A stretch of DNA of 64,000 nucleotides from an uncultured bacterium. Lineage in GTDB: Bacteria > Verrucomicrobiota > Kiritimatiellia > RFP12 > UBA1067. Made by a program: the position numbers and the translations under genes. Below, one piece after another: positions 3,559 to 48,600 of this stretch. The notes under the pieces were generated by a model. The model worked only from the letters and a program-made list of their open reading frames with translations. It was not told the DNA's origin and did not search any database. The stretch spans positions 27,217 through 91,216 of the forward strand of contig CADCCW010000005.1 of assembly GCA_902800055.1 (NCBI GenBank), written 5' to 3'. Numbering within the stretch: position 1 is the first letter of the stretch; every line of letters begins with the position of its first letter.

Positions 3559-3572
3559 CGTCCGGCTGGTCC

Positions 3573-3989: not shown

Positions 3990-3993
3990 CGCC

Positions 3994-5445: not shown

Positions 5446-5524
5446 CAGCTTTTGTCCAACCTCTCTCCCCTTGATTTGCCCTTTGCCGCCGGGACGGCGC
5501 CGCGCCGTTCCGTTTAATACGCGC

Positions 5525-10461: not shown

Positions 10462-11132
10462 CAGCCGTTCTCCATCAACCGCACCAGCCGGTCGAGCTCC
10501 GCCGGCGGCAGCACCGTCCGCACGGACGAGAAGCTGCTCTCGAGGAAGTTCGAGTTGATTATCACCACGCCGTTCGACTCGGCGACCTTGGCCTCGAAGG
10601 TGTCGGACGCGAAGGCGAGGACCGGCGTCACCTCGCCCTTCCAGCCGCGCTTGGCGAGCTCGTTCTTCACCGCCTCCGCCTCCTTCAGCACCTGCTTGAG
10701 CGGCGGGCGGTCGGTAAGCTGGCCGTCGAGCAGGATGTGCCCGTCGTCGAGGGTGACGCGCCCGTTCCAGAACTTGGTCTCGATCGCGAAGACGCCGGCC
10801 GGCCCCACCACCACGTGGTCGACGTGGCGGCCGCAGGCGACGAAGTCGTTGAAGACATGGTAGCCGTCGGGCAGCTTCTGGAGGATGCCGGCGACGCGCT
10901 CCTCGCCGCGCGCGCCCTTGAAGTAGCGCTCCACGTGGCGGAGCCCGCGCGCCAGCGTCACCGCGCACCAGACCGCCGCGACCACGAAGAGCGCGCACCC
11001 TACGACCGGGTAGCGGAGCGCCAGCGCCGCCGAGTAGCCGGCGACGAACACCCCGGCGAAAAGCGGCCACAGCCCGAACACCGTTCCCTTTACCCGGGCC
11101 CACTCGCCCGCCACTCCGTGGATTCCTGCCAT
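10461..11132 (-). CDS. NERD (nuclease-related domain) membrane protein
   Basis: Two TM helices, then GARGEERVAGIL...VDHVVVGPAGVFAIETKFWNG typical of NERD. Confidence 0.8.
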   Translation of the reverse strand: MAGIHGVAGEWARVKGTVFGLWPLFAGVFVAGYSAALALRYPVVGCALFVVAAVWCAVTLARGLRHVERYFKGARGEERVAGILQKLPDGYHVFNDFVACGRHVDHVVVGPAGVFAIETKFWNGRVTLDDGHILLDGQLTDRPPLKQVLKEAEAVKNELAKRGWKGEVTPVLAFASDTFEAKVAESNGVVIINSNFLESSFSSVRTVLPPAELDRLVRLMENG

Positions 11133-11157
11133 TTCCCTATTTCCCCTTTCCCCTTTC
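11132..11157. repeat. Degenerate heptamer tandem repeat (TTTCCCY), about 3.5 units, spanning the dxs stop and NERD start
   Basis: tttccct-a-tttcccc-tttcccc-tttc; encodes the dxs C-terminal ERGKGK. Confidence 0.5.
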
Positions 11158-12855
11158 GGCAACCAGCGCGGCGGCGATGGCTCCGGCGTCGAGCGAGAAC
11201 CTGCGCTCAAGCTCGTCCACCCGCCCGTGCGGGACAAACTCGTCCGGCCAGCCGAAGCGGAGGTCGGCGCCAATCGCCTCGCCGAAGCCGCCGGCGAGCG
11301 CGCAGTTCTCGATCGAGACGATTTTCATCCCCGCCGCGCGCTGCCGCGCAAGCCGCTCCGCGTCAAAGGGCTTGAGCGTGCGTGCGTGCACGACCTCGCA
11401 GCCGCCGACTTCCCCGGCGACGGCAATCGCCTTGGCAAGCGCGTCGCCCGGCGCCCAGATGGCGAAATCAGCCTTGTCCGGCGGCGACGGAACCTCCAGC
11501 TCGGCCGGCGCGGCGCCGCGCGGATACCGGATCACCGTCGGCCCGCCGCGGTCAAGCGCCTCGCCGAGCGCGGCGACGAGGTCTGGCGCGTCCTTCGGCT
11601 GCACGATCTCGAGGTTAGGCAAGCACCGGAGCATCGCGTAGTCGTAGAGTCCCTGGTGGGTCGTGCCGTCCGCGCCCACGATTCCCGCGCGGTCCACGCA
11701 GAGGACGACCGGCAGACGCGATATGCACACGTCGTGCATCACCTGGTCGACCGCGCGCTGCAGGAAAGTGGAGTAGACGGCAACGAAAGGACGGAGCCCG
11801 CCGGCGGCGAGCCCGGCGGCGAAGGCGACGAGGTGGCCCTCGGCGATGCCGACGTCGAAGAAGCGGTCCGGGAACTCACGTGCGAAGCCGGCAAGCCCGG
11901 TGCCGTCGCGCATGCCGGCGGTGAGCGCGACTACCCGCTCGTCCTTGCGCGCCAGCTCCGAAAGCGCCGCGCCGAACTCCTCCGACCAAGACTTCGCCCG
12001 CACGCCGAGGGTGACAGGCGCGACCGGCGAGACGCCGTGGTACTTCACCGGATCCTGCTCGGCCGGGGCGTATCCCTTGCCCTTGCGGGTGACGACATGC
12101 ACCAGCACCGAGCGCGGCTCGGCCTTCGCCGCGGCCAGCGCCGAGCGGAGCGCGGCGAGGTCGTGTCCGTCCACCGGCCCCAGGTAGTGGAGTCCGAACT
12201 GCTCGGACCAGACGTCGCCGAGCACCATCGACTTGAGGATGCGCTTGAACCAGTGGACCGGTCGGTAGAGGAACGAGAGCCGCAGCGCCCGCCCCGCCGC
12301 CTTGACCGCGTTCTTCGCCCGGTTGTAGCGGACGCCCGAGGTAAGCCGCGCGAGGACGCGCGAGAGGCTGCCGACGGAGCGGGAGATGGACATCTCGTTG
12401 TCGTTCAGCACCACGATCAGCTTCTTCGTCTCGGCGGCACAGTTGTTCAGTGCCTCGAACGAATGGCCGTTGGCCATCGACGCGTCGCCGACCACCGCCA
12501 CCACGTGCTCGCTGCCGCCGCGGCGGTCGCGCGCGGCGGCGAGACCGAGCGCCACCGAGAGCGCCGAGCCGGCGTGGCCGGCGACCGCCGCGTCGGCCGG
12601 GCTTTCCCTCGGGTCCAGAAACGGCGAAAGCCCGCCGAGGGTACGGATGGTGCCGAACTCGGCTCCGCGCCCGGTCAGGATCTTCCAGGCATATGCCTGG
12701 TGGCCGACATCCCACACGACGCGGTCACGGACAGGGTCGAACTCCTCGGCAAGCGCCATCGAAAGCTCCACCGCCCCGAGCGACGAGGCGAGGTGGCCGC
12801 CGTTGCGCAGCACGGTGGCGACGATCTGCTCGCGAATCTCCGCGGCCGATTGCAT
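11137..12855 (-). CDS. dxs: 1-deoxy-D-xylulose-5-phosphate synthase
   Basis: GGHLASSLGAVEL, WDVGHQAY, GHAGSALS, VVGDASM...LNDNEMSI, GPVDGHDL, KGKGY, FDVGIAE, DRAGIVGADGTTHQG. Confidence 0.95.
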   Translation of the reverse strand: MQSAAEIREQIVATVLRNGGHLASSLGAVELSMALAEEFDPVRDRVVWDVGHQAYAWKILTGRGAEFGTIRTLGGLSPFLDPRESPADAAVAGHAGSALSVALGLAAARDRRGGSEHVVAVVGDASMANGHSFEALNNCAAETKKLIVVLNDNEMSISRSVGSLSRVLARLTSGVRYNRAKNAVKAAGRALRLSFLYRPVHWFKRILKSMVLGDVWSEQFGLHYLGPVDGHDLAALRSALAAAKAEPRSVLVHVVTRKGKGYAPAEQDPVKYHGVSPVAPVTLGVRAKSWSEEFGAALSELARKDERVVALTAGMRDGTGLAGFAREFPDRFFDVGIAEGHLVAFAAGLAAGGLRPFVAVYSTFLQRAVDQVMHDVCISRLPVVLCVDRAGIVGADGTTHQGLYDYAMLRCLPNLEIVQPKDAPDLVAALGEALDRGGPTVIRYPRGAAPAELEVPSPPDKADFAIWAPGDALAKAIAVAGEVGGCEVVHARTLKPFDAERLARQRAAGMKIVSIENCALAGGFGEAIGADLRFGWPDEFVPHGRVDELERRFSLDAGAIAAALVAERGKGK

Positions 12856-12856
12856 C

Positions 12857-14431
12857 CTAAGGCGTCCCCCTTCCCGCCCCGGCCGCCTTGCGCCGCAGTA
12901 CCAGGAGCGTGGTGGCATTCTGCCCAAATGCCTCCTCGCGGTCGACCAGCTCGTAGTTGCGCTTTAGCATCTCCCAGTACTCGATCTGGCGCTCGACCGG
13001 ACGCTCGTCGCACTTCGGCGGATCGATGGCGAAGGCGTAGCCGGAGAACGCGGCGATTTCGCAGGGAGCTGACGAGAGGAGTTCATGCCATCGCTCGTCA
13101 CTGAGCATCGAGAACGGCCCCATCTCCAGCCCAGCCGGCACCTTGCGCCCAGTCTCGACGGCGAGGTAGAGGTCCTGGGTGAAGAGCTCGCTGCCGCCGG
13201 GATCGAGCGCCTCAATCCGCCGAGCGACATCTCTGAGCTGCTTCAATTCGGTCGCGCTCTTCTTGAGCGACCAGAAGCGGTCCTGTCCGTTCGTCGACCA
13301 GCGCTCCAAGAGCGGCGAGCCGAACGTCGACGCCCACGCAAGCCCAAGTACCAGCACCAGTCGCAGTCCTGCGGCCGCGGCGGCGCCGCGCGCAAACAAC
13401 GCCGCGGCGCATACGGTCAGCACCCCCATGACCGGCACCTGGTAGTCCTCGTATGGGAACGGGGCAAGCATCTGCACCGCAAAGACGGCGAGGAACGAGA
13501 CCGCCAGGAGCGGCAGCAGCGCGCGCGGCGCGGCTACGCGCAGCGGTTCGACGCCACCTCGGCGGGCGTTCAGCGCAAACACCACCCCCATGCCGAGGAC
13601 GACGAACATCGGCAGATACCAGCGCACGAGGCGCGAGACGCTGCCCACCGTCCAGACCGGATCAAAGCCGCCGCGCGCAGCATGGTAGCGTTGCGCGGCG
13701 ACGAGCCCGGCAAAGGCGTCGGCGTCCAGGAGGAACGGACCATAGACGAGCGCGAGCCCGCCGAAGCCGCCGATGCAAAAGGCGGCAAGCTCGCACCAGC
13801 GCCGGGAGACAAGCAGCCAGGTGCCTACGGTGCAGAGGAGGATGCCCAGCGAGATGCGCGTCCCCGCCGCGAACGCGAGGCTCAGCCCCGCGCCGATGCC
13901 AAAGGCGAAGACGGCCAGGCGCGATTTGCGCGCGCCGGACTCCGCCGGCAGGAATGATACGAGGAAGAACCCGACCGCAACGAAGAGCGAGGCGAGCGCG
14001 TAGGTCTTGGGAATGGCGATGTAGTAGAGGTGATAGAGGTTGGAGCCGAGCAGCATCGCCGTCGCCAGCGCGGCAAACGACCTGCCATCCCTCGGCGCCA
14101 GCCGCCGGGCGAGCGCGATGGCGAAGACGATGCCGACAAGGCCGATCGACAGGGTGAAGACTCGCGCGCCAAGGAGCCCGAAGCCGTTCCAGACCGCAGT
14201 GAAGGCGGAGTAAACAATCGGCATCAGCGGGCCCTGGGTGTAGAAGAAGTCGCGGTAGAGCATCTTCCCCTCCGCGACCAGGTTCGCCGCGTAGAGATAC
14301 CAGCCCTCGTCCTGGTTGAGCCCGCCCATCCAGACCGCGGCGAACGACAGCACCGCCGTGGCGAACACCGCGAGCGCCGCGAAGGCAACCGCCCCGAACG
14401 AACCTATCGGCCTCTCCTCTCCGTCAGACAT
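12857..14431 (-). CDS. Polytopic membrane protein, GT-C-type (ArnT/PMT-like) glycosyltransferase candidate
   Basis: About 12 TM helices; NQDEGWY acidic motif after TM1 followed by LYRDFFYTQGPL. Confidence 0.6.
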   Translation of the reverse strand: MSDGEERPIGSFGAVAFAALAVFATAVLSFAAVWMGGLNQDEGWYLYAANLVAEGKMLYRDFFYTQGPLMPIVYSAFTAVWNGFGLLGARVFTLSIGLVGIVFAIALARRLAPRDGRSFAALATAMLLGSNLYHLYYIAIPKTYALASLFVAVGFFLVSFLPAESGARKSRLAVFAFGIGAGLSLAFAAGTRISLGILLCTVGTWLLVSRRWCELAAFCIGGFGGLALVYGPFLLDADAFAGLVAAQRYHAARGGFDPVWTVGSVSRLVRWYLPMFVVLGMGVVFALNARRGGVEPLRVAAPRALLPLLAVSFLAVFAVQMLAPFPYEDYQVPVMGVLTVCAAALFARGAAAAAGLRLVLVLGLAWASTFGSPLLERWSTNGQDRFWSLKKSATELKQLRDVARRIEALDPGGSELFTQDLYLAVETGRKVPAGLEMGPFSMLSDERWHELLSSAPCEIAAFSGYAFAIDPPKCDERPVERQIEYWEMLKRNYELVDREEAFGQNATTLLVLRRKAAGAGRGTP

Positions 14432-15560
14432 CTCGACTCTCCTTTCCCGCGTCGCCGACTTCAAGCGACGGCTCGGCATCCATCCGCATCGCCTCATCAC
14501 CTTCGACGCGGCGACGCAGGCAGGCGAGGCCGGCGACCATCGCGCCATTGTCGCCAGTGTATTTCGGCAGCGCCGTCAGCATCGGCACCCCGGCCGCGCG
14601 GCACTCCTCCGCCAGCGTCTCGCGGATGCGCGAATTGAGCGAAACCCCGCCGCCAAGCACGAATGCGGAATAGCGCCTCCGCCGCAGCGCCGCGCGCACG
14701 CGCTCCGCAATCGCCGCGGCGATCGCCTCCTGGTAGCTGGCGACGACATGCGCAATCGCCGGAGTCGTCTCGTAGCCGCCCCAATCGCGCGTGCCGGAGC
14801 GGTCGTCGACGATCTCTGGGTGGCGCTGGACATGGCGCAGGAGCGCGGTCTTCAGCCCCGAAAAGGAAACGCACAGCTCCGCCGGCAGCCCCGAGAGCGC
14901 CGCCACGCCTTCGCGCGGACGCCCCTTCGGAAACGGCACCAGCGCGGCGGACGGATTCTCGCGGAGATAAGCGGCGGCGATGCGGTCGATCTTGAGCCCG
15001 CCGGGATAGCCAAGCCCCAGGAGCTTCGCCGCCTTGTCGAACGCCTCGCCGGCGGCGTCGTCCAGCGTCTCTCCGATGGTCTCGTAGCGTCCGTATTCCG
15101 GCATATCGACAAGCAGGGTATTGCCGCCCGAAACCACGAGACCAAGCGCGTGGCCGAGCTTGCGCGGGTCCGGCGCGGCGTAGGTGGCGTCAGCCGGCGA
15201 ATCAAAGAGGAACGGGGAATGGAGGTGTGCCTCGATGTGGTTGACGCCAACAAGCGGCACGCCAAGCGAAAGCGCAAGCCCCTTCGCAAAGTTGACGCCA
15301 ACGATGAGCGCCGGCGCGAGGCCGGGGCCGTAGGTGACCGCAACCGCGTCCACCTTGCCGCCCGCCGCGTCGATCGCGGAGCCAACCACCTGGCCGATCT
15401 TCTCGACGTGGGCGCGAGAGGCGATCTCCGGCACCACCCCGCCATAGGGGCTGTGGAGCGGGATCTGGGTGTAGACCACGCTGGAGACGACCTCGCGAGC
15501 GTCCCTCACCACCGCCGCCGCGGTTTCGTCGCAACTCGTCTCTATGCCGAGAACCGTCAA
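14424..15560 (-). CDS. tsaD: tRNA N6-adenosine threonylcarbamoyltransferase
   Basis: LGIETSCDETAAA, GGVVPEIASRAH, GPGL, NHIEAHL, VSGGNT, DDAAGEAFDK, SFSGLKT, GDNGAMVA; TTG start. Confidence 0.96.
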   Translation of the reverse strand: MTVLGIETSCDETAAAVVRDAREVVSSVVYTQIPLHSPYGGVVPEIASRAHVEKIGQVVGSAIDAAGGKVDAVAVTYGPGLAPALIVGVNFAKGLALSLGVPLVGVNHIEAHLHSPFLFDSPADATYAAPDPRKLGHALGLVVSGGNTLLVDMPEYGRYETIGETLDDAAGEAFDKAAKLLGLGYPGGLKIDRIAAAYLRENPSAALVPFPKGRPREGVAALSGLPAELCVSFSGLKTALLRHVQRHPEIVDDRSGTRDWGGYETTPAIAHVVASYQEAIAAAIAERVRAALRRRRYSAFVLGGGVSLNSRIRETLAEECRAAGVPMLTALPKYTGDNGAMVAGLACLRRRVEGDEAMRMDAEPSLEVGDAGKESRDV

Positions 15561-15578
15561 CGCCCAAATCCCCCTTCG

Positions 15579-16457
15579 CTACCAGAACTTCCACCATGGG
15601 TTCTGCTTCGGCTTCACCCCACCCTCGCGGTAGAGCTCGCGCACGCTCTGCGTGCCAGCCGTCGCCGGGTCGAGCACCGCGCTGCGGCCGCGGAACTCGA
15701 GCGCGTCCGGCAGCGACCAGAACTCGCTGCGCACGAACTGGTCCTGGTTGAGCCGGTGCAGGACGAAGACCTTGCCGTCGCCGCAGACGCTGATCGTCGG
15801 CCGGTCGATGCGGAGGATGGGCCCCAGGTCGGAGGTGCGCCATCGCCGCCCGTTCGAGTCCTTCGCCTTCAGGAAGACGTGCTCGCTGCGGCCGCGCGAC
15901 CAGTAGACCAGGGAGAACTCGCGCTGAAGCGAGCCGCGCGAAGCGAACATCTGCATCGCGCTGGCGGCGCGCACGCCCTCAACGATGTCGAACACGCGCG
16001 GCTGCCCCTCGTAGCGCACGCCGGCATGCACCAGGACCGGCTTGGCCATATAGCGGTTGGGCTCGATGAGCGGGAAGTGGTCGCCGAGGAAGGTCTCGAG
16101 CTTCTGCCCCTCGCCGGTCGCCGCCGCGAAGTCGGCGACGAACGCACCCTTGGAGATCTTCTGGAGCTGGTGCATGTCGCCGGTACGGTAGACCTCGATG
16201 AAGAACCGGTCGTTGACGTTGTACTCGCCGCGGACGACGCGGTTGGTTTCGTCCCCACCCCACACGCGCACCCTGCCGCCGATGCCAATCGTATCAGGCG
16301 ACGAGTTGGCGATGTCCACCACCGCCCGCACGCGCTCGCCCGAGACGTAGTCGGAGGCGTCCATTCGGAGATTGACCGTGATTTCGCTGATCGCCGCGGC
16401 AAACGCCGCGGGCAAAGCCGCCACCGCGACCAGCAGAGAAAACATGGGCTTCCTCAT
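15579..16457 (-). CDS. Hypothetical exported protein
   Basis: 292 aa with signal peptide MRKPMFSLLVAVAALPAAFAA; codon usage like its neighbours; coupled (ATGA) to the upstream gene. Confidence 0.7.
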   Translation of the reverse strand: MRKPMFSLLVAVAALPAAFAAAISEITVNLRMDASDYVSGERVRAVVDIANSSPDTIGIGGRVRVWGGDETNRVVRGEYNVNDRFFIEVYRTGDMHQLQKISKGAFVADFAAATGEGQKLETFLGDHFPLIEPNRYMAKPVLVHAGVRYEGQPRVFDIVEGVRAASAMQMFASRGSLQREFSLVYWSRGRSEHVFLKAKDSNGRRWRTSDLGPILRIDRPTISVCGDGKVFVLHRLNQDQFVRSEFWSLPDALEFRGRSAVLDPATAGTQSVRELYREGGVKPKQNPWWKFW

Positions 16458-17344
16458 CCGAGACCTCCCTTCGTCAACTTGATTTCCAGCCCGTCGTACG
16501 CCGGCTCCGCGCAGGTACCCTTAAGGCGCAAAAGCCAGTCGGCGTGCGAAATGTCGTGGCACATATGGACAAGATACGCCTTCTTCGGTGCAATGGCCTG
16601 AAGATAGCCGAGCGCCCGTTCGAGGCTCAGGTGCGTCGGGTGCTCGCGCTCCCGAAGGCAGTTGAGGACCATGACATCGACGCCCTTCACACGCTCCACC
16701 GTCGCGTCCGGGAGACCGTGACAGTCGCTAATGTACGCAATCGACCGTTCACCATCCCCCATTCCCTGTTCCCCGTTCCCCGTTCCCCATTCCCTAAACA
16801 AATATCCACAGCATGGAAATCCGTGCTCGACCTTGAGCCGTTCGACGCGGACAGTGCCGATCGAGAACGTCTCGGCGGAGTCGAACTCGATCTGGGGTCG
16901 GAAGAGCCCGTTCGCGCCGCCCTTCCCGCTGATGTACGGGAAGATCCGGTGCATCTGCTCGATTGTCTCCTCCATCGCGTAGCAGGGCATCGGCTTGCCG
17001 ACAATGCGGTAGGGAAGCCCGCGGTAGAGCGGATCGCCCGGCTCGCACGGCACTTTCTCGCCGTTCAGCGTGTTGAAGCGGCGGAGGTCGTCGAACCCGG
17101 CCACATGGTCCATGTGCGCATGGGTGAGGACAACCGCGTCGACCTTGGAGACACCCAGCTCCACGCACGCGAGCCGAAGCTCGGGCGGGGTGTCAATGAG
17201 GAACGCCGCGCCGTCCGCCGCGGTCACGTACGCGCCGCAGCGCCGACGCCGGTCGCGCGGATCGAGCGAGGTGCAGACCGGGCACTTGCACCCGATCTGC
17301 GGCACGCCGACCGAAGTCCCCGTCCCTAGAAAGCGAAACGTCAA
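16454..17344 (-). CDS. MBL-fold metallo-hydrolase (PhnP/YycJ-like)
   Basis: FLGTGTSVGVP, LIDTPPELR, LTHAHMDHVAG, SDC, HPTHLS, HMCHD; contains a microsatellite-encoded insert. Confidence 0.88.
   Translation of the reverse strand: MTFRFLGTGTSVGVPQIGCKCPVCTSLDPRDRRRRCGAYVTAADGAAFLIDTPPELRLACVELGVSKVDAVVLTHAHMDHVAGFDDLRRFNTLNGEKVPCEPGDPLYRGLPYRIVGKPMPCYAMEETIEQMHRIFPYISGKGGANGLFRPQIEFDSAETFSIGTVRVERLKVEHGFPCCGYLFREWGTGNGEQGMGDGERSIAYISDCHGLPDATVERVKGVDVMVLNCLREREHPTHLSLERALGYLQAIAPKKAYLVHMCHDISHADWLLRLKGTCAEPAYDGLEIKLTKGGLG
16748..16796. repeat. Heptamer tandem repeat (TTCCCCR-like) x7, in-frame inside the MBL hydrolase
   Basis: ttcacca tccccca ttccctg ttccccg ttccccg ttcccca ttcccta; encodes REWGTGNGEQGMGDGE. 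Confidence 0.85.
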
Positions 17345-17349
17345 CTCCG

Positions 17350-17377
17350 TTCCCCGTTACCCGTTCCCCACTCTCCG
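17350..17377. repeat. Heptamer tandem repeat (TTCCCCR-like) x4, filling the intergenic gap
   Basis: ttccccg ttacccg ttcccca ctctccg between the MFS stop (17378) and the MBL start (17344). Confidence 0.75.
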
Positions 17378-18904
17378 CTACTTCTTCTCCGGCATCTTGC
17401 CGGTGGTGAAGTACTGCTCCACCTCCTCCAGGGTGCGGCCCTTGGTCTCAGGCAGGAAGAACGCGGCGGTTATGAAGTAGATCACCGTGAAGCCGGCCAG
17501 CACGAAGAACACCGTGCCGTTGTCATTCGTCGCCGCGCACCACTTCGGGAAGACAGTCGCGATTCCGGCCGAGACGCCCTGGTTGATGATCATCGCGATC
17601 GCCATGCCGTTGGCGCGGATGCGCGTGGGCATCAGCTCCGTCAGCGCCAGCCACACGCACACGCCCGGGCCGACGGCGTAGAAGCCGATGAACATGAAGA
17701 AGAACACCGTCGCAAGGACACCCGTCACCATCGACGGCGCGACCCACGCCTTCGAAATGGCGAGAAAGATCGTGCCCACGCCGCAGAGGCCCACGATAAT
17801 GCCGCCGGTGCCGAGCTTGAGGAGGAACTTGCGTCCCTTCTTGTCCACCAGCGCGCAGGCGACGACCGTCATCACGCAGTTCATGATCTTGATCGCAACG
17901 TCCGACACGTTCGCGAACGCGCCCTGCATGCCGGTCTTCTGGAAGATCGTCACCGTGTAGTTCAGGACCGAGTTGATGCCAGTCGTCTGGTTGCAGGCGA
18001 GGATCACCACCGCGAGGATGAACGGGATGACGTACTTCTTCTGGAGGAGCGAGTCCGTCGCCGCGGCGTTCTTCGCCTTCTCTGCCGCCGCCGCCTCGTC
18101 CGCGGCGATCATCTCGGCGAGGATCTCCTTTGCCTTCTCCTCGCCGTTGTTCGCGGCGAGCGAGGCGAGCGCCTCGTCCTTGCGGCCCTTCCGATAGAGC
18201 CAGCGCGACGATTCCTTAAGCTTGAATGCGCCAAGGAAAAGCACGATTCCGGGGATGCACGAGAAGAGGAAGATCATCTGCCAGGCATGGACCCACGAAG
18301 TGATCTGCGCGGGATCGACCCAGCCCTTGATCATCGCGAAGTCGACCTTCGAAAGCTCGGTCACACCGTTCGCCGCGGCCTTCTCAGCGACGACCTTGGC
18401 GGCGTCGCCGGCGAAGGAGGCAACGCAGAACCCGATTACCGCCACGAACACGAGGCCGATCGTGAGCAGCAGCTGGAACATGCCCGTACCCTTGCCGCGC
18501 GAGTCGGCGTCGAGGCACTCGGCGAGGTACATCGGCACGATCACCCCGAAGAGGCCGGCCGCGGCGCCCTGCATCGCGCGCCCGCCCACCATCATCCAGA
18601 AGTTGCCGCCCTCGAAGAAGCCCGAGGCGCAGATGACCGGAATCGACACGAGGAACAGGAGCGCCGAGGCGACGATCATCTTCTTGCGCCCAAACCACTC
18701 GGCCAAGAGGCCGGCGACGAGCGACGATGGCAACGACCCCCAGAGCGCCATTCCGACGATCCAGCCGATTTCGTTCTGGCTGAACGTCGAGGTCCTTTCG
18801 ATGTACGGCAGCGCCGCGGCGATCACGCCGACGTCGACGCCGTAGAGCAGCCCTCCGAGCCCCGCCATGATGAGCAGGAACTTCGCATATCCCTTTACCG
18901 TCAT
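17378..18904 (-). CDS. MFS sugar porter (GalP/XylE family)
   Basis: GLGGLLYGVDVGVIAA, EWFGRKK, PMYLAE...RGKG, ESSRWL, NQTTGINSVLNY, VDKKGRK, PETKGRTLEE. Confidence 0.93.
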   Translation of the reverse strand: MTVKGYAKFLLIMAGLGGLLYGVDVGVIAAALPYIERTSTFSQNEIGWIVGMALWGSLPSSLVAGLLAEWFGRKKMIVASALLFLVSIPVICASGFFEGGNFWMMVGGRAMQGAAAGLFGVIVPMYLAECLDADSRGKGTGMFQLLLTIGLVFVAVIGFCVASFAGDAAKVVAEKAAANGVTELSKVDFAMIKGWVDPAQITSWVHAWQMIFLFSCIPGIVLFLGAFKLKESSRWLYRKGRKDEALASLAANNGEEKAKEILAEMIAADEAAAAEKAKNAAATDSLLQKKYVIPFILAVVILACNQTTGINSVLNYTVTIFQKTGMQGAFANVSDVAIKIMNCVMTVVACALVDKKGRKFLLKLGTGGIIVGLCGVGTIFLAISKAWVAPSMVTGVLATVFFFMFIGFYAVGPGVCVWLALTELMPTRIRANGMAIAMIINQGVSAGIATVFPKWCAATNDNGTVFFVLAGFTVIYFITAAFFLPETKGRTLEEVEQYFTTGKMPEKK

Positions 18905-18935
18905 TTCGATTCTCCTTTCAAGGCGATGCCCTGGG

Positions 18936-20342
18936 TTATTTCTTCCTGCGGATGACCGGAATCTGCGCGGCGGCCACGGACTGGCCGAGCCGGCGCGCCT
19001 TCTCGTCGGGCATGAAGAGGTCGATCTTCTCCGCCCACTCCGGATAGACGTCCGCGAGGATCCGCTTCGCGGTCTCGAGGATGATCTCGCCGCCCAGCCC
19101 GGAGGTGACGCGCCCGAGGATCATCATGTTCTCGTAGTCGAAGAACTCGTTGTACCACGGCATCGCGTGGGCGAGGAAGCGGCCGATCTCGAGGTAGACC
19201 TTGAGCGCCTTCGCGTCGCCCTTCTCCATCGCCGCCTGCACCACCTTGAGCCGCTCCGGGAGCTTCATCGCCTTCGGGAACTTGAAGCCGTACTTCTCGG
19301 CGAGCCAGTTGACCGCCTGCTGCGAGAACGCCATCGCGCCCACGCCGTAGTCGCCGGACCACTCGTCCTTCGGCGCGCACGGGTTGAAGTCCACCGGCGC
19401 GAACGCGAGCTCGCAGATGCGGCCGGTCATCCGGCGCTTCGGGTCGACGTAGCCGACCGCCTCCGAGGACCCCATCGCCACGCCGAGGATGCCGTTCTTG
19501 CCCATCGAGATCATGCCCGCGAGCGCCGTCACGTCGCCGTCGTTGTAGACGGCGAATGGAACGCCCCAGTCCTTCTCGATGCGGTAGAACATGTTCTGCG
19601 CCTCGGGGAACTTCGCGGGGTTCTTCTCCTTCACCGCGCGGAAGAGCGAGGCGAGCCCCATCTTCTGGCCCACCAGCACGCCGGCGGTGGACCCGCCGAT
19701 CGCGTCGACGCGCGGCAGCGCCGCCGCGGCCTCCTTGAGCCCCGCGGTCAGCTTGGAGTAGTGGTACTCCGGGTCGGCGTTGTTCCTGGGGTCCCAGGGG
19801 AACTCCTTGGAGAAGACGACCTTGCCGTTCCTGAGCGCGGAGATCTTGAAGTCGCTCGCGCCGAGGTCGAAGCCGATGCGGCAGCCGTCCGCCACCGTCT
19901 TCACCTGGTTGAGCTTCTCGGAGAACTCCGGCATCTTGCCCTGCGGCACCACCACGGCCTCGACCGGGCGCCCGTAGATGGACGAGAAGAAGTCGAAGTC
20001 GAACGCGCGCGCGCCCTTCTTGGTGTATGCCTTCGCGATGGGCTTCACCACCGCGTCGGGCCCGGAAAGGTAGAGCTTCCAGCCGCCGGCCGCCCAGAGC
20101 GTGAACTTGGCGATGCGCTCGACGACGTGCGAGACGAACTTCGCGGCCGCGGGGTCGAGCCGCTTCGGCACCGGCAGGTCGTAGCGGAAGACCTTGCCCT
20201 CCTCTCGCTCCCACGCCACGGAGACGATGTCCGCAGACGCCTTGGAGGCGATTCCGTCGTATATCTGCCACAACGCCGCCATCGGCGCGCAGAACCCGCT
20301 GTCGCACGCGCGGCAGCCCTTCTTATCGCAAGCACAAGCCAT
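18936..20342 (-). CDS. ROK-family sugar kinase-like protein with N-terminal extension
   Basis: RIGFDLGASDFK, IGGSTAG, VYNDGDVTALAG, GVAMGSSEAVGY; SD GGGGG before the ATG. Confidence 0.75.
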   Translation of the reverse strand: MACACDKKGCRACDSGFCAPMAALWQIYDGIASKASADIVSVAWEREEGKVFRYDLPVPKRLDPAAAKFVSHVVERIAKFTLWAAGGWKLYLSGPDAVVKPIAKAYTKKGARAFDFDFFSSIYGRPVEAVVVPQGKMPEFSEKLNQVKTVADGCRIGFDLGASDFKISALRNGKVVFSKEFPWDPRNNADPEYHYSKLTAGLKEAAAALPRVDAIGGSTAGVLVGQKMGLASLFRAVKEKNPAKFPEAQNMFYRIEKDWGVPFAVYNDGDVTALAGMISMGKNGILGVAMGSSEAVGYVDPKRRMTGRICELAFAPVDFNPCAPKDEWSGDYGVGAMAFSQQAVNWLAEKYGFKFPKAMKLPERLKVVQAAMEKGDAKALKVYLEIGRFLAHAMPWYNEFFDYENMMILGRVTSGLGGEIILETAKRILADVYPEWAEKIDLFMPDEKARRLGQSVAAAQIPVIRRKK

Positions 20343-25949: not shown

Positions 25950-25959
25950 AATGAGGCGT

Positions 25960-25968
25960 ATTATACCA
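25960..25968 (-). promoter_or_regulatory. Extended -10 promoter TGGTATAAT (glyQS operon)
   Basis: ATTATACCA; 10 nt to the ATG, no SD in between. Confidence 0.75.
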
Positions 25969-26905: not shown

Positions 26906-26912
26906 GTAGTGT

Positions 26913-26921
26913 ATTATACCA
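26913..26921 (-). promoter_or_regulatory. Extended -10 promoter TGGTATAAT, 7 nt before the cysK ATG (leaderless geometry)
   Basis: TATAAT-acactac-ATG. Confidence 0.8.
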
Positions 26922-27094
26922 AATCCGCCGCGGGAAGTGCCGCGGCTCAGCGGGGGAGAAATGCACCTGCGCCGAAGGCGCATCCCCTCCCAGCTTCGCC
27001 GCCCACTTTGCATACCTTGCGTCATAAGGCAAAGCACCGCAACATAGACATAACTGCCACGCCGAGATTACCACCGACAGCCAAACACCTCAGC

Positions 27095-28873
27095 TCACAA
27101 AGCCCCCTTGCCGTGGCATACTGGGCACTCTACATCGCGCTCGATTCGAATGCGGCCTCGCCTTTTACATTTGGGGCAATCAAAGCCAGCCTTGGATTTT
27201 TTGGTTCTCGATCTATCACCAACATGGTGACTGTTCTCTAATTCAATTTCGTGCGTAATTACTCCTTGTCCACCACACCCATCACACGGCTCGAGAACTG
27301 CCGTTTTCACCGAGCCCTGCCCACGGCATTTGTAACACTTTACCGGACCGCTGGTCTTTTGACCTGTCTGCCCGCCTCTTTTTATTTTCTTCTCGGCAGA
27401 TTTTTTCTTGCCTCTTTCAACAATCAACTCGCAATCTGCAAGATACTTGTCAACTGCGGATTCTTCCACCACCTCCATGTTCATTTCCCTCGCCTTACGC
27501 TCAAACTCCTTCTGAGCAAAGCTATTCTCAGCCGCAATCTTTAGTTCTTCCTCATCCTCCAGCACGGCAATATCACGAAGCCGTTCCCAATCCTCCCGCG
27601 CCCTTTGACGAACTTCGTAATTGATGTTGCCATGATAATGATACTGGAATTCCCGCGGTATATGAATAAGGCCGCTTATGTCTTTCTTTGTTATGCCCCC
27701 ATCATAGAACACGACTGTGCGTCGCATCTTTTTGGGAACCGGCGGTTTTATTGCCTTGGCGCTACGCTTTAATCTTCTTTCCAAAACATCTCTGACCGGA
27801 GCCTCTATGCTTTCCCACGAGACAACATCATCTGCGCTACAAATTCCAAGATCACAAACCCGCTCCCCGTTTTTCTTCTGCAATGTGACATGATATCTCT
27901 TGTCTGGAGTATTGATTCCTAACGCAAGCGTGATGTCCAAGAGCTTTCCAAGATCCGCCTCGTAAGGGACAAAAGCCTTCCCGCGATCTGGCACAGGGTA
28001 TCTCCCTGTATTCCTTGCGACACCACAGATTATCACCTTGCCACCCTTTACGAGAAGCCCCGCCCTTGATTCTGGTGAAGGTATGGCAAATCCGTCAGGA
28101 GCCTTTTCAGGCAATTTGTCTGGATATATAACCCATACTTCGACACCATTCTTGATTTCATAAATTCTACCATCACGGCTAAAGGACTCATCAACATAAC
28201 AAACAACACCAGTCGCATTCCCAGAAGAACTGTCCTTCATGACATCAAGATAAAAATATGTCGTCGCCAATCCGAATGCTTCACGCACTCGACGATAATT
28301 CTCCTGTGCGGCTGAAATCTTTTCAATCTCGCGTCTTTTCGCCTCGCTTTCCTCGCGCGCTCTCCGACGCTCTTCCAGGCGCTCTTGCTCCAACCTCGCA
28401 TCCTCTGCCTCGCGCTCACGCCGAAGCCTCTGCTCCCGCTCTTCCGCCTCTTTGCGTTCATGTTCCAATTCCGCCGCCCTTTCCGCTGCCGCTCTCGCCG
28501 CCTCGGCGCGTTCCCTGTCCATTCGCAATTGGTCTTCATACGCCTGCCTCCGTTCGAATTTTCTATACTGAACAAGGCCAAACACAACTGCCGCGGCTAA
28601 CACCGCCGCGACTATGATATTGCGCACTGTTCCCGATTTGTCATTTGATGCTACCATATCGGAATCCAATCTCCTAATCGACCCAATGTTATTCTTTTTA
28701 AAATGAATCTTAGTGTTCGGAGAAACGCCCGATGCCTTTGGTGGATTTTGCATATTCCGTTCCTTGGTGTATGAAAACTTACAATTGCAGTATGGACATA
28801 TGATGTGCTGACCATCTGAGATCTCGTCTGGCACTTCTAACTGCGCCTTGCAAGAACGGCATTCTATTATCAT
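27095..28873 (-). CDS. Hypothetical membrane protein: N-terminal zinc ribbon, TM, coiled coil, C-terminal DnaJ-type CxxCxGxG zinc finger
   Basis: MIIECRSCKAQL...ICPYCNCKF; TM IIVAAVLAAAVVFGLV; E/R-rich coil; CYKCRGQG, CDGCGGQG, CPKCKRRG, CPVCHGKG; ATGA overlap with the upstream gene. Confidence 0.75.
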   Translation of the reverse strand: MIIECRSCKAQLEVPDEISDGQHIICPYCNCKFSYTKERNMQNPPKASGVSPNTKIHFKKNNIGSIRRLDSDMVASNDKSGTVRNIIVAAVLAAAVVFGLVQYRKFERRQAYEDQLRMDRERAEAARAAAERAAELEHERKEAEEREQRLRREREAEDARLEQERLEERRRAREESEAKRREIEKISAAQENYRRVREAFGLATTYFYLDVMKDSSSGNATGVVCYVDESFSRDGRIYEIKNGVEVWVIYPDKLPEKAPDGFAIPSPESRAGLLVKGGKVIICGVARNTGRYPVPDRGKAFVPYEADLGKLLDITLALGINTPDKRYHVTLQKKNGERVCDLGICSADDVVSWESIEAPVRDVLERRLKRSAKAIKPPVPKKMRRTVVFYDGGITKKDISGLIHIPREFQYHYHGNINYEVRQRAREDWERLRDIAVLEDEEELKIAAENSFAQKEFERKAREMNMEVVEESAVDKYLADCELIVERGKKKSAEKKIKRGGQTGQKTSGPVKCYKCRGQGSVKTAVLEPCDGCGGQGVITHEIELENSHHVGDRSRTKKSKAGFDCPKCKRRGRIRIERDVECPVCHGKGAL

Positions 28874-30159
28874 TCTCTTACTCCTTTCTCGTATTTTCCA
28901 GCGCGCTTCATCACTACACGCACCTCTTTCGTGCCTCGCCAATCATATCGACATTTCAATTCCCCCCTCCACCTCCACTCGTCATCGTCGTATTCCAACA
29001 CCGCTTCAACTGGGAAACCACGCTTCTCAAGGCCACCATACAACCGCGCAGCTTTGCCACATTCAACATAATCCTCCTTGAAGCCGCATATTGGCTTCAC
29101 CCTAGCCTTAACATCTTGATTGTCAGCTTCTGCAATCAGCACAATATGAAGCCCCAGCTCTTCTCTCGCAACATCATTCCATTCTCGGACATCCCCTACC
29201 TCTCCACACTCGCTGATGATCCAGTCGGTTATCTCCATTAGATCTTTCCACTCCTTGCGCAGCATACATAATCGAGCATTAAGCATGGCCTTACGAATTC
29301 GCACATCGTTTTCACGTTTGTTGACATCAGCTGCATCCACGGAAGTCCTATCCATTCGTTCTGCAGCCCCCTCGCCATAATTTAGTACAAGGACAAGTGC
29401 CTCCGAGGCGTTTGAGACAACTTTCTCTGCGCGCAATGTTCGCCCAGGGATCCCGTTAACACATTTCACGTCCTTAGGCATAAACTCACGAACGGTCTTC
29501 ATGTTAATTGCATAGTTAGCTCCAATGCTTGCCCCATGCGCCGATGCGACAATTACTCCAACCATATGCCCATACTCGTCAACGACTGGCCCGCCCGAGC
29601 AACCGCCAGCGATAGTGGCATCCATCTGGAAGTTGTCCTTTTGTCCTTTGTAGCCAGTTAAGCTGCTGACGATTCCCTTTGTTGCCTTAGGCTCAAAACC
29701 CAGCACATTCGGATTGGGGAAACCGACCGCATACACCGTCTGCCCAATTGAGCAACCAGATGACAACGGAAGAAATGACACTTTCGGAACACTGCATTCT
29801 GTTAGATTATAGACGCCATTTGTCATCCGTGGGAATAGATTGACCTTCATAAGCGCAAGATCGCGCTTCTTGTTCTTGGAAACAATAATTGCACGATAAG
29901 CCACATCGCCGTGCACAACGACGACTTCCGAGCTGTTCTCGACAACATGATGATTTGTCAGTATATAACCATCCTCCGTGATGAAGAACCCGGAACCATA
30001 CGCCGACAAGTGCGTTTTGCCTCTCTTGGCTTTCTCGGTAAGTCTTTCAAAGTCCTTTGGCTTTACTCCATCACGAATGAAGGAGTCAATAACCATCTTG
30101 TCGGACGACGGTCCGACAATCATCCAATTGGCAAGAAGGCATGCGGCGAATACACTCAT
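28870..30159 (-). CDS. Trypsin-like (S1C/HtrA-like) serine protease without PDZ
   Basis: GSGFFITEDGYILTNHHVV (His), RDLALMK (Asp), AVGFP, KGIVSS, QMDATIAGGCSGGPVV (Ser). Confidence 0.88.
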   Translation of the reverse strand: MSVFAACLLANWMIVGPSSDKMVIDSFIRDGVKPKDFERLTEKAKRGKTHLSAYGSGFFITEDGYILTNHHVVENSSEVVVVHGDVAYRAIIVSKNKKRDLALMKVNLFPRMTNGVYNLTECSVPKVSFLPLSSGCSIGQTVYAVGFPNPNVLGFEPKATKGIVSSLTGYKGQKDNFQMDATIAGGCSGGPVVDEYGHMVGVIVASAHGASIGANYAINMKTVREFMPKDVKCVNGIPGRTLRAEKVVSNASEALVLVLNYGEGAAERMDRTSVDAADVNKRENDVRIRKAMLNARLCMLRKEWKDLMEITDWIISECGEVGDVREWNDVAREELGLHIVLIAEADNQDVKARVKPICGFKEDYVECGKAARLYGGLEKRGFPVEAVLEYDDDEWRWRGELKCRYDWRGTKEVRVVMKRAGKYEKGVRE

Positions 30160-31373
30160 TTCCCCGCCTCCACTTCGTTTATGGATTTTGCTATGCTGTT
30201 TGCGATCTCCTTACGCAGCGCCTCTAGCTCCTCTGCGTTAAGAAAATCTATATTAACAGCCTTCTGCTTCAAATAATCTAGGTGGCGCTTCGCGGTCGTC
30301 AGCACCTCACCTCGAAATTTGCGCGCAGCCATGATTGCTTCGCTAATCCTCAGCAGCGACATCGCCTCGAATTCCCTCGCACGATTGTATATGTCCTGTT
30401 CGTGATCGCGCTCCAAAAGGGCGAGGTCATTCTCCAACGTCAGCGTCTTGCCTGCTTTGTCAAAAGCCCGTCTAGCCTCTGTTTCAGCCTCTGTCGCATC
30501 CATGTGAAGAAGATTTGCTCCAGCCAAACCAGTAATGTCCTCAAGCTGGCTCAACTGATTCTGCAATAATGAATTTGTAGTTTCCAGTTCTTTAATTCTT
30601 CGTTTGTGCCACGGCGACTTCGACTTGTTCGCCAACAACCTTTCGAGCTCCTTATCATTGTCAGCTAATTGCTTCTTGATCTTTTCTATCCGTTTTGGAT
30701 CGGCATTCTTCTGATACGAAGCATACTTGTCGCGCGCTGCTTTGAGTCGCCGGTTTACCTTCTCATCAGCCCCATTTACAGTTTCGTCATATTTTGCAAC
30801 ATTTGAGCGAATTCGCTTCTGGTAACGTTCGTCAACATCCTTTATCTTCTGCATTTCCGCCTCAAATTCAGATCGCAACGCCGATAGATCACTGCCACAA
30901 TATATGCGAGCCAAACGATTCATGACAACTGACGAAAGAATAGCCCGCACTCGCTCGATCTTGTCCCTATGTATATCTCCTCGCTTCTCGGCGCTCGCCA
31001 CCCTTGCCGAATTTGCGTTCTCAATTGCCCGCAGTTCACCTTCCAGAGCCTCTTGATCTATATCAATCTTTTGAAGATTGATCTCAGCTGTCTCCACTTC
31101 CACCCGAAGACGCTCTTCTTCCCGATCAACATACCGGATAAACATACGCATTGCGTCATCCTTGGCAAGAGCCTCCGACCGCTCCTTGCGGACGCGCTCG
31201 TCCTCTGCCTTTTTCTTTTCCTCATATTCACGCTCTCGCGCTTCAGACTCTTTCCTCTGCTCCAGACTGCGAATGTACGCACGCTCTCTGTCAGCACGAT
31301 CATTTTCTGTAACGTACCAGAAAACTGCCGCAGTCAACGTCGATATGAACATTATCAATACGACAACCTTCAC
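30156..31373 (-). CDS. Hypothetical membrane-anchored coiled-coil protein
   Basis: N-terminal TM (VVVLIMFISTLTAAVFWYV), then about 380 aa of E/K/R/A-rich helical sequence; GTG start with AAGGGGG SD. Confidence 0.75.
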   Translation of the reverse strand: MKVVVLIMFISTLTAAVFWYVTENDRADRERAYIRSLEQRKESEAREREYEEKKKAEDERVRKERSEALAKDDAMRMFIRYVDREEERLRVEVETAEINLQKIDIDQEALEGELRAIENANSARVASAEKRGDIHRDKIERVRAILSSVVMNRLARIYCGSDLSALRSEFEAEMQKIKDVDERYQKRIRSNVAKYDETVNGADEKVNRRLKAARDKYASYQKNADPKRIEKIKKQLADNDKELERLLANKSKSPWHKRRIKELETTNSLLQNQLSQLEDITGLAGANLLHMDATEAETEARRAFDKAGKTLTLENDLALLERDHEQDIYNRAREFEAMSLLRISEAIMAARKFRGEVLTTAKRHLDYLKQKAVNIDFLNAEELEALRKEIANSIAKSINEVEAGK

Positions 31374-31454
31374 TTCCGCCCCCTTTCTTGCCGCTGTTGT
31401 TCATTGGGAAAACGCCGGCGGCAAAAGAGCGGCGCACTCCCGAAATTCACATCT

Positions 31455-31575
31455 CAGTAGAGGCACCGCTAAGAGCCTGTTTGGAAATATGAACGAAGAA
31501 GTGCGCCGCGTGATTGTCACGCAACGCACAGCCCGTATTTCACTTCCAAACTGAAAAATTAGCGGTTTTCCACTG
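31455..31575. repeat. Long imperfect palindrome (about 120 nt rod hairpin)
   Basis: Nested arms: CAGT/ACTG, ACCGCTAA(31465-72)/TTAGCGGT(31559-66), GTTTGGAA(31479-86)/TTCCAAAC(31544-51), GTGCG/CGCAC, GCGTGA-ttg-TCACGC. Confidence 0.7.
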
Positions 31576-31804
31576 AAGCTACTTTACGTACTGCTGCGTA
31601 CGTCTCCTCCTTGTGGCGAGACTCCTTCACGCTATGCTTGGGCAGGACGCCGACTTTGGAGGATTTGCCGCGGGCGTCAATTGCGTTTCCGCGGCTCTGC
31701 GATGACGGAACTACTGCAGGCTTGCTCCGCCGTTGGGAAAGAGCGTTCGTCGCTCTCGCGATATAGCCGTAGACGCCAGCCCGTCAGCGGCTGAAAGTGT
31801 TCGT

Positions 31805-31815
31805 ATTATACCATA
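31805..31815 (-). promoter_or_regulatory. Extended -10 promoter TATGGTATAAT with no adjacent ORF
   Basis: ATTATACCATA on the plus strand; the nearest downstream start is 430 nt away (31373). Confidence 0.7.
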
Positions 31816-32064
31816 TTCTATGCATGTTGTGGTGAAAACTGCCGCGGAGTCCCCAGCATCCACTAGTTAGCGGACGCGCTTGCGGTGCGGCGGAGGGCGG
31901 GGAGCCGGCCCGACGACGTGATTCGAGACCTAAGCGCCTTCGGAACGGATGCGAGTTCCGGTCAGTGTCGAGAATCCCGAGCTCGGCACGTTAGGAGGCC
32001 GAGCGTTCGGCGGGCCGAGCTCCACCGCCCGAAGCCGTGAAAGACGGACGTGTAGGCCGAACGC

Positions 32065-35186: not shown

Positions 35187-35193
35187 GGAGTGT

Positions 35194-35204
35194 ATTATAC
35201 CATA
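35194..35204 (-). promoter_or_regulatory. Extended -10 promoter TATGGTATAAT, 7 nt before the tolB ATG (leaderless geometry)
   Basis: TATAAT-acactcc-ATG. Confidence 0.8.
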
Positions 35205-43115: not shown

Positions 43116-43121
43116 GCCGCT

Positions 43122-43132
43122 ATTATACCATA
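43122..43132 (-). promoter_or_regulatory. Extended -10 promoter TATGGTATAAT, 6 nt before the apt ATG (leaderless geometry)
   Basis: TATAAT-agcggc-ATG; its TAA is also the stop codon of the upstream ABC ATPase. Confidence 0.8.
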
Positions 43133-48583: not shown

Positions 48584-48589
48584 GTGCGT

Positions 48590-48600
48590 ATTATACCATA
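48590..48600 (-). promoter_or_regulatory. Extended -10 promoter TATGGTATAAT, 6 nt before the cysE ATG (leaderless geometry)
   Basis: TATAAT-acgcac-ATG. Confidence 0.8.

Follow-up and report, generated by a model that had tools for sequence, protein, structure and literature searches.

The window analysed here, a stretch of 64,000 nucleotides (nt) from an uncultured Kiritimatiellia bacterium (contig CADCCW010000005.1, positions 27,217 to 91,216), harbours between cysK and accA an island of low guanine-plus-cytosine (GC) content, in which a structured RNA leader precedes three genes that we call A, B and C. Computed over 400-nt segments, GC was 0.45-0.55 at ~27000-31600 against 0.63-0.73 in the surroundings and 0.61-0.75 elsewhere, and at 1-kb resolution this was the only stretch of the 64-kb window below 0.55. 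The island mean amounted to 0.49, compared with ~0.67 for the host. At third codon positions (GC3), the three genes displayed values of 0.52, 0.50 and 0.48, as opposed to 0.94-0.96 in glyQS, accA and accD. All three open reading frames (ORFs) lie on the minus strand, with stop and start codons overlapping as ATGA at 30159-30156 and 28873-28870, and a Shine-Dalgarno-like purine run occurs 5' of each overlap.

The limits of the island were obtained from a strain with an identical AccA protein (L037), in which only 26 nt separate accA and cysK. Using blastn, its positions 1398-4545 aligned with 35205-32055 of the window and its positions 4572-5506 with 26909-25975, segment 26910-32054 being absent. 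Because of this empty site, 26910-32054 is shown to be an acquired insertion at a hypervariable hotspot. An original prediction, made from the letters of the window, had already noticed the abrupt GC drop of ~4.5 kb between cysK and accA, as well as the translational coupling of three genes through these same two overlaps. Its proposal of an acquired segment is borne out by the empty site, by the alternative cargo found at the hotspot and by a GC3 gap of ~0.45. Its limits (27040-31570) were too narrow and the ~72% GC that it gave for the surroundings was above the host level.

Further variants of the site were gathered by looking up the exact AccA protein of the window, and at least five kinds of content were found 3' of identical AccA. 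These were the empty site, a metallophosphatase gene (L032 and L033), a block encoding an AraC regulator, a Laminin_G protein, a kinase and a sigma factor (L030 and L034), another two-gene cargo with a beta-helix protein (L031), and the A-B-C trio (L035, L036 and the window). The site downstream of accA is a recombination hotspot inside one rumen population; a rumen metagenome scaffold (STEW19, SAMEA5384004) matched 15.7 kb of the window at 100% identity. The 90% cluster to which glyQS belongs bears the name Kiritimatiellia. Between the window and the near-identical L015, host intergenic DNA was several per cent different and contained insertions and deletions, and from ~31579 onward into the island a single difference was observed in ~280 nt compared. 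The island displays both a deviant composition and an empty site, with no integrase or recombinase gene in the insert, no tRNA gene in the window that might serve as target and no meaningful or long direct repeat at the borders, where the only repeat, of 14 nt, corresponds to the general promoter motif.

RNA leader and promoter

The DNA upstream of gene A encodes a previously uncatalogued structured RNA, which is well supported. About 230 nt before gene A were common to the window, to L031 with its unrelated cargo, and to trio loci in which protein A is 55-60% identical. The leader core (31412-31603, minus strand, as are all its parts; covariance model R1, 187 bits) consists of three nested helices and an overlapping terminator. 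Outer helix P1 (31465-31566), a putative antiterminator, joins ACCGCTAA (31566-31559) to TTAGCGGT (31472-31465) by 8 pairs, 5 of them changed on both sides. Helix P2 (31480-31549) joins 31549-31540 to 31489-31480 by 10 pairs, 7 of them changed on both sides, and a single P2 pair was altered in this way in up to 11 of 17 sequences. Helix P3 (31501-31529) is the apical hairpin GTGCGTTGCGT...ACGCGGCGCAC, with 11 pairs, 92.7% paired and 6 changed on both sides, and was also picked up by a terminator scan. The terminator-like hairpin itself (31420-31470) is GC-rich and composed of a 5' arm at 31470-31460 and a 3' arm at 31441-31428, followed by CTCTTTTGCC. The 3' strand of P1 and this 5' arm have 6 nt in common, so that the two structures are mutually exclusive, and the minimum free energy and centroid folds of the window leader were found to be these two alternatives (P1 versus terminator). 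A comparable hairpin with a U-rich tract was observed in 12 of 14 leaders.

RNAalifold recovered the three nested helices from 14 leaders, with compensatory changes in 15 of the 29 pairs. In this set 91.7% of cells were paired, against 31-51% when partners were slid, and the covariation score of 0.46 (at most 0.15 in controls) was reached by none of 500 shuffles. With 17 sequences, pairing rose to 93.4% of cells and 18 of the 29 pairs displayed changes on both sides, in an alignment that was fitted to the covariance model and so leans towards structure. Taken singly, the window leader folded with a z of -5.3. Junction nucleotides were conserved as well. The covariance model gave a single hit in each locus, invariably 40-60 nt ahead of the first cargo gene, and also recovered loci outside its build set (L012, L010 and L028, and the later-fetched L040-42 at 156 bits). 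So far, leader copies are known from Kiritimatiellia only, and no exact viral match to the leader was obtained. Rfam (4227 families) gave no match anywhere in the window at the gathering threshold, and only two chance-level ones when E was allowed up to 10. A leader peptide was considered and rejected, as the only conserved ATG of the leader is ATA in the window.

The leader looks like an on/off transcription switch, that is, a candidate riboswitch or attenuator. It is the most solid of the new elements and recasts the island, in which the original prediction had mentioned no such RNA, as a regulated and swappable cassette.

An extended -10 promoter motif of host type, TGGTATAATA, occurs at 31804-31813 (minus strand), ~200 nt upstream of the leader core and with no ORF start within 80 nt. 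This motif had 12 matches in the window where 0.06 were expected, and in 10 of 17 loci a host-type TGGTATAAT box or similar preceded the leader by 50-260 nt. Six copies of TGGTATAATA, all on the minus strand (25959-25968, 26912-26921, 35193-35202, 43121-43130, 48589-48598 and 60393-60402), precede the start codons of long ORFs, among them glyQS, cysK and a TolB-like gene. The one at 26912-26921, 6 nt before the cysK ATG, lies inside the right end of the insert and is absent from the empty-site strain. Because the ATG starts only 5-10 nt after the motif in these six cases, the arrangement suggests that many genes of this host give leaderless or near-leaderless mRNAs.

The GC-rich stretch between promoter and leader core was variable among loci. 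Recurrent motifs, namely TCTTTGACATA followed by a hairpin and then by GCCGGTCGCCAC, and also GGCCAGAACCTCG, were encountered 100-260 nt upstream of the core in L016, L017, L019, L005, L021, L024 and L039, and are missing from the window; they may represent another promoter or a further element of regulation. In L020, an AT-rich palindrome made of repeats of GAGAATGTAAAAT and their complement is inserted in the DNA upstream of the leader and resembles a miniature inverted-repeat element. It lies ~90-170 nt downstream of a TGGTATAAT box, which is itself 257 nt before the leader core (9758).

Proteins encoded by the trio

Gene A (30156-31373, minus strand) starts with GTG and encodes 405 residues, an N-terminal membrane anchor (residues 3-21) being followed by a conserved helical domain. 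This frame was accepted because full-length homologues support it; the annotation of the source and that of L015 contain gene A as 232 residues only (30676-31373, minus strand), together with a spurious ORF of 163 residues (30969-31460, plus strand). After its single hydrophobic segment, A comprises ~380 residues rich in E, K, R, D and Q (42%) with a heptad signal, and the 405 residues include 2 prolines. With 52 invariant columns across 28 homologues, the conservation of A exceeds by far that of a generic coiled coil. The family is small: an exhaustive profile search retrieved only 79 matching clusters among 1.84 billion representative proteins. None of the relatives bears an annotation, searches in Pfam, NCBIfam, PHROGs, PADLOC and the PDB gave nothing beyond chance or coiled-coil composition, and no relative was found in IMG/VR or PLSDB.

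In distant members of the A family, the A domain is preceded either by a lipoprotein signal peptide (with an LSGC, ITGC or CGC lipobox) or by a zinc ribbon and a transmembrane (TM) segment. Five such fusions (P0216, P0224, P0228, P0229 and P0233) share a cytoplasmic domain of ~100 residues between zinc ribbon and TM segment ('...DDLRxAL..CRKDPE...YY.NAP.GARLYI.L.FYG.VFK...'), which has no Pfam match. The most distant A-like protein (L026/L027, 773-9449; E 8e-12) is organised as ribbon, TM segment and A domain and comes after a cluster of exported proteins that includes an LPP20-like and an 894-residue leucine-rich-repeat protein. Since neither leader nor protease accompanies this gene, the A domain may have uses outside the cassette.

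Gene B (28870-30159, minus strand; 429 residues) encodes an HtrA/DegS-like serine protease with a signal-like N-terminus and without PDZ domain. Its protease domain (residues 27-226; nt 29482-30081, minus strand) displays a DegS-like fold and matched Trypsin_2 of Pfam (E 9e-26, 91.7 bits versus a cut-off of 27.6). The best NCBIfam model, degP_htrA_DO, scored 100.3 bits (E 1e-28) against a family cut-off of 416, and the DegS model was also matched. Catalytic triad H71, D100 and S188 was invariant in 58 sequences. The AlphaFold2 (AF2) model had a mean predicted local distance difference test score (pLDDT) of 86.9. In Foldseek, where results were dominated by the protease domain, the top matches were DegS delta-PDZ (E 1e-11), with the protease domains of HhoA and HTRA1 among the best solved folds. 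No PDZ domain was detected in B by Pfam, and full-length DegS alignments at low root-mean-square deviation span the protease domain only. The C-terminal domain (residues 244-422; nt 28894-29430, minus strand) is modelled by AF2 as three helices and an eight-strand all-beta domain, with strands and no helices at 337-422, and no PDB sequence matched it. Because it has no PDZ domain and stays below the curated family scores, B appears to be an active-looking HtrA-type catalytic domain, yet not a canonical HtrA member. Nearly all B homologues open with a hydrophobic, signal-like stretch of 12-18 residues. The protease domain also matched the protease modules of RT-Protease_XI, LmuA, PDC-M35A and Avs1b in PADLOC (E 1e-17 to 1e-30), and matches of B to phages ran through this generic domain only.

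Gene C (27095-28873, minus strand; 592 residues) has the most composite organization. An N-terminal zinc ribbon (residues 1-34; nt 28772-28873) with cysteines C5, C8, C26 and C29 (CXXC-X17-CXXC) is followed, after a linker, by a hydrophobic TM segment (residues 86-103; nt 28565-28618). The next segment (residues 104-202; nt 28268-28564) is rich in E, R and A (26, 24 and 17, respectively, of the 95 residues at 106-200) and is predicted by AF2 as one continuous helix. It leads to an alpha/beta head (residues 204-410; nt 27644-28264), a conserved 'VVFYDG...VPRxF' motif and a second helix (residues 419-479), head and helix again according to AF2. The protein ends with four CXXCXGXG repeats (residues 511-592; nt 27098-27343), namely CYKCRGQG, CDGCGGQG, CPKCKRRG and CPVCHGKG, which scored 19.2 bits with DnaJ_CXXCXGXG of Pfam, below the cut-off of 32.7. 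Among C proteins this four-repeat finger is confined to the clade of the window. The AF2 model reached a pLDDT of 67 overall, ~80 in the head and <50 in the repeats. Foldseek against the PDB related only the zinc ribbon to known folds (ZitP and LysW), the top match being the ZitP finger 2nb9 (probability 1.00, target TM-score 0.62, E 0.29), and the head had no match in the PDB or BFVD. Profile and sequence searches of C in Pfam, NCBIfam, PHROGs, PADLOC and the PDB likewise gave nothing beyond chance or composition. The zinc-ribbon region was the least conserved part of C (amino acid identity of 0.43 over the first 60 residues). In five C homologues, K and R clustered on the ribbon side of the TM segment.

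Together, the lipoprotein and ribbon-TM variants of A, the signal-like N-termini of B and the positive-inside pattern of C argue strongly for a module that faces the periplasm, in agreement with the envelope location proposed in the original prediction. That proposal had placed N-terminal hydrophobic segments in all three proteins, which is true for A and B and not for C, whose segment (86-103) comes after the zinc ribbon. The statement that only the protease is recognisable holds for Pfam, NCBIfam, PHROGs, PADLOC and the PDB.

Conservation and spread of the trio

The order A-B-C was observed in 14 of 14 distinct loci that can accommodate three genes. Starts overlap or are adjacent in these loci, which sit in unrelated neighbourhoods. 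GC of the trio was below that of the flanks in 9 of 10 other loci. The ratio of non-synonymous to synonymous divergence (dN/dS) between the window and L039 was 0.07 for A, 0.11 for B and 0.16 for C, with dS near saturation; these values point to purifying selection on all three genes, C apparently evolving fastest, and the reading frames of all three were intact in every locus. Together with the coupled starts, these data sustain the idea of co-functional genes put forward in the original prediction. The three observations that it had named as fatal to itself did not occur, since the genes co-occur elsewhere, are not core and syntenic in all relatives and match no characterised system.

About 110 full-length homologues of B were retrieved, all from gut, rumen or similar metagenomes, and every locus source of identifiable origin was a gut, rumen or digester metagenome. 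Scans of GTDB and JGI with the A profile yielded 2 and 8 loci, respectively, these low figures being due to the narrowness of the exact-word patterns.

Several variants depart from the three-gene layout. Two-gene variants (L010 and L040) have A, no C and a long B (634-641 residues) with an extra degenerate protease domain, A of L040 bearing the zinc ribbon. L012 is composed of five genes, with a short B and a C lacking the zinc ribbon. In L010 and L012, the ribbon is missing from both A and C. The invariant core across variants is A and B. In L005, two additional stand-alone C paralogues (16354-17694 and 17811-19250) occur 4-8 kb downstream of the trio and have no leader copy; a CesT-like chaperone gene and a gene for a 952-residue protein without Pfam domain lie between them and the trio (12105-15978).

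Neighbours of the trio across genomes comprised PIN and RelE/helix-turn-helix toxin-antitoxin genes, AbiEii-like pairs, an AEP-TOTE helicase-nuclease and AAA_14-DUF4143 ATPases. NgoPII restriction-modification genes with Vsr, RhuM, a DDE transposase and PRiA4 were also encountered. These neighbourhoods have the flavour of variable 'conflict' islands.

Cassettes behind the leader

The leader precedes six cassette layouts. These are A-B-C; Z-A-B-C-D (L012); A with long B; ribbon-A with long B; a secreted beta-helix protein with a protein bearing the four-repeat finger (L031); and a finger-rich lipoprotein with an A-like lipoprotein (L028). By sequence, nearly all the proteins concerned appear exported or membrane-anchored, no signal or membrane segment having been identified in the L031 finger protein or in the 62-residue D of L012.

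The L031 cassette (10259-12605) occupies the same site behind the same leader. It encodes a 307-residue secreted right-handed beta-helix protein and then a 409-residue protein whose last 70 residues form the same four-repeat finger, 40% identical to the C-terminal region of C. Because the same leader and the same finger are paired here with other cargo, L031 implies an exchange of cassettes, with breakpoints probably lying within the leader and within or past the finger. In L028, the A-like lipoprotein comes after a 251-residue protein with a signal/lipobox-like N-terminus and ten CXXC motifs, several of CXXCXGXG type. Since this apparently exported, finger-rich protein stands beside an A-like lipoprotein, CXXCXGXG fingers appear to work in the periplasm here.

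Possible roles of the cassette

We tentatively read the trio cassette as a horizontally acquired, signal-gated accessory module for surveillance of envelope proteins. This reading starts from what was observed: the trio is acquired and syntenic, B has the catalytic residues and the fold of an HtrA-type protease, and the leader is structured and displays covariation. A host-type promoter would drive a long 5' untranslated region (UTR) with the 190-nt core, folding either as P1-P2-P3 or as a terminator, which recruits a portion of the 3' strand of P1. Given these two alternative folds, a signal, be it a small molecule, an ion or a protein, would set read-through into the operon. A would be a helical protein anchored in the inner membrane, docking or restraining B at the membrane. 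B would act as an exported HtrA/DegS-type serine protease in which a new helical and beta-sandwich domain has replaced PDZ. C would be bitopic, with a cytoplasmic zinc ribbon, a rigid E/R-rich helix of ~100 residues holding the head off the membrane and, in this clade, the finger. A and C may thus be membrane-tethered adaptors standing in for PDZ domains; head and finger of C could capture misfolded or foreign envelope polypeptides, which B would degrade. The CXXCXGXG repeats of C, as an element of chaperone type also known from the membrane protein LQY1, speak for such a role. The whole would constitute an accessory DegP/DegS-like system that is switched on conditionally.

Several points weigh against this proposal. 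Complex formation, substrates and signal of the module are only inferred, and the presentation of a substrate or signal to the protease by coiled-coil partners, as put forward in the original prediction, stays at the level of a proposal. The patchy, low-GC, hotspot distribution fits defence at least as well, and core quality-control proteases are not usually strain-variable. Conflict genes or transposases stood beside the trio in at least 6 of ~10 independent contexts, a raw count that has no background rate. Because of the two-gene variants without C and of L012 without zinc ribbon, the adaptor model is not universal. Signal peptides were called by eye rather than with a trained predictor, and the terminator helix, paired at 81.7%, displayed little covariation of its own.

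The first competitor, possible and still somewhat unlikely in our view, is a defence against phages or mobile elements acting at the envelope, in which incoming phage components would be sensed or blocked in the periplasm by C (and A), with B destroying either these or, to abort infection or exclude superinfection, a host envelope protein. Presence/absence polymorphism at the hotspot among identical-AccA strains is in line with this, as are the low GC at nine of the ten other loci, the PADLOC protease modules matched by B, and the behaviour of C, which evolves ~2 times faster than A and B, varies by gain and loss of domains and is present as additional paralogues in L005. Toxin-antitoxin, restriction and Abi genes among the neighbours are a matter of raw adjacency with no background rate, and it is only on neighbouring genes that the defence framing rests. 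Yet in none of the six variants is a PADLOC model matched by A or C, no relatives were found in phage or viral collections (where B appears through its generic protease domain only), and all parts face the periplasm, whereas the protease-based defence effectors described to our knowledge act in the cytoplasm. A terminator/antiterminator leader shared with non-protease cassettes would, as far as we know, also be unusual for defence genes, and the hotspot holds non-defence cargo too (AraC regulator, kinase, sigma factor). A bolder combination, which we hold to be unlikely, would make the leader a new riboswitch class for an envelope or gut signal gating swappable exported cassettes, and the trio a periplasmic immune or exclusion system in which the stalked sensor C and A direct the PDZ-less B at phage components.

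Regulated intramembrane proteolysis in the manner of DegS-RseA is quite improbable. B would then make a first cut in the periplasmic portion of C, after which a site-2 protease of the host would free the zinc ribbon of C for a cytosolic partner, and A would be an RseB-like protector. DegS structures are indeed the closest solved ones to B, and the layout of C recalls RseA in its small cytoplasmic N-terminus, single TM segment and periplasmic domain; bitopic N-terminal zinc ribbons are known docking modules, as for ZitP and PopZ (PMC5182063), the ZitP finger being the top Foldseek match of C, and the ribbon shifts onto A in two-gene variants (L040). On the other hand, a sigma factor or regulator is linked to the trio in no locus, L010 and L012 have the ribbon on neither A nor C, some variants have no C at all, B has no PDZ sensor, and the ribbon region is precisely the part of C that is conserved least. 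We find equally doubtful a signal-controlled cassette for remodelling of the cell surface or for host interaction, in which a second messenger or gut cue, acting on the leader, would switch on exported proteins together with a processing protease. Proteases and adhesins under riboswitch control in other gut bacteria would offer a parallel. The occurrence of the same leader before unrelated exported cargo (beta-helix and finger protein in L031, lipoprotein pairs in L028) would agree with such a role, as would identifiable sources that are all gut, rumen or digester, while A and C sit in the inner membrane and not on the cell surface, the trio has no adhesin-type domain and the leader matches no known riboswitch class. 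It is hardly credible, finally, that the trio is decaying or selfish cargo without cellular role, such as the remnant of a larger mobile element. Borders devoid of integrase, tRNA and long direct repeat, and the patchy distribution, might be so explained, yet the frames are intact in every locus, purifying selection appears strong, the triad is invariant and the leader has been kept by compensatory changes.

Several aspects make the cassette of wider interest. The leader, found before six operon layouts, provides a ready riboswitch or attenuator candidate in a poorly studied phylum, and the genes that it controls help in guessing its signal. The cassette pairs a PDZ-less, HtrA-type protease with dedicated membrane-tethered partners, and relatives with an annotation or a solved structure are lacking for A and for the head of C. 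Exchange at one hotspot in a natural rumen population, with identical flanks and leader and different cargo, is a useful record of how accessory envelope or defence functions move among uncultured gut bacteria. If a role in defence were true, it would be a rare case of immunity acting in the periplasm.

Comparison with known systems

As far as sequence comparisons tell, no described system matches the A-B-C gene set, and the trio as well as two protein families (A and the head of C) are undescribed, as the original prediction had anticipated for the gene set. In PADLOC v2.0.0, run on the window and five variant loci, only the protease domain of B was matched, A and C giving nothing meaningful. 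The described protease defences of PADLOC (RT-Protease class XI, Lamassu LmuA-protease, PDC-M35A and Avs1b) share with the trio a trypsin-like domain and an occurrence in variable islands, whereas the trio has no reverse transcriptase, SMC-like LmuB or STAND NTPase. Trypsin-linked conflict systems (Trypco1/2 and VMAP ternary systems; Kaur et al., PMC7159879) have partners different from those of the trio. They were considered and set aside, as A and C had no significant Pfam match (the presence of Trypco models in the Pfam copy used being unchecked) and no vWA/MoxR neighbour was found.

With the HtrA family (DegP/DegQ/DegS, MEROPS S1C), B has in common the Trypsin_2 fold, the invariant H-D-S triad and the export-type N-terminus. 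It differs by the absence of PDZ, by NCBIfam scores that are all far below the family cut-offs, by two dedicated membrane partners and by its location in a mobile cassette. The DegS-RseA-RseB system of Escherichia coli similarly associates a DegS-like protease with a bitopic protein having a small cytoplasmic N-terminus and with a third, periplasmic partner. In contrast, the trio has no PDZ sensor, A and C are not similar to RseB and RseA, and some variants do without the cytoplasmic domain. The likeness to this system is one of topology only, as Pfam revealed neither sigma nor anti-sigma domains in the trio or adjoining genes in ~10 independent contexts.

For C, two partial parallels were found. 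ZitP of Caulobacter is bitopic, its cytoplasmic N-terminal zinc ribbon binding PopZ (PMC5182063), and C displays the same succession of ribbon, linker, single TM segment and periplasmic domain. The periplasmic part is however unrelated, with no DUF3426 match in Pfam, the E of the similarity is only 0.29, and C is not known to be linked to PopZ or pili. LQY1 is a TM protein of plant thylakoids with four CXXCXGXG repeats and with disulfide-isomerase/renaturation activity; loss of LQY1 lowers photosystem II efficiency and increases sensitivity to high light (PMC4754418). C recalls LQY1/CYO1 in its TM segment and in the four CXXCXGXG repeats at its end, a putative C4 finger; the likeness is limited to this repeat motif, the host is a bacterium and the finger occurs only in the clade of the window and in the L031 cargo.

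The leader of the trio, for its part, differs from described riboswitch and attenuator leaders in matching no Rfam family, and shares with them a multi-helix 5' UTR in which the outer helix competes with a terminator-like hairpin just upstream of the first gene.

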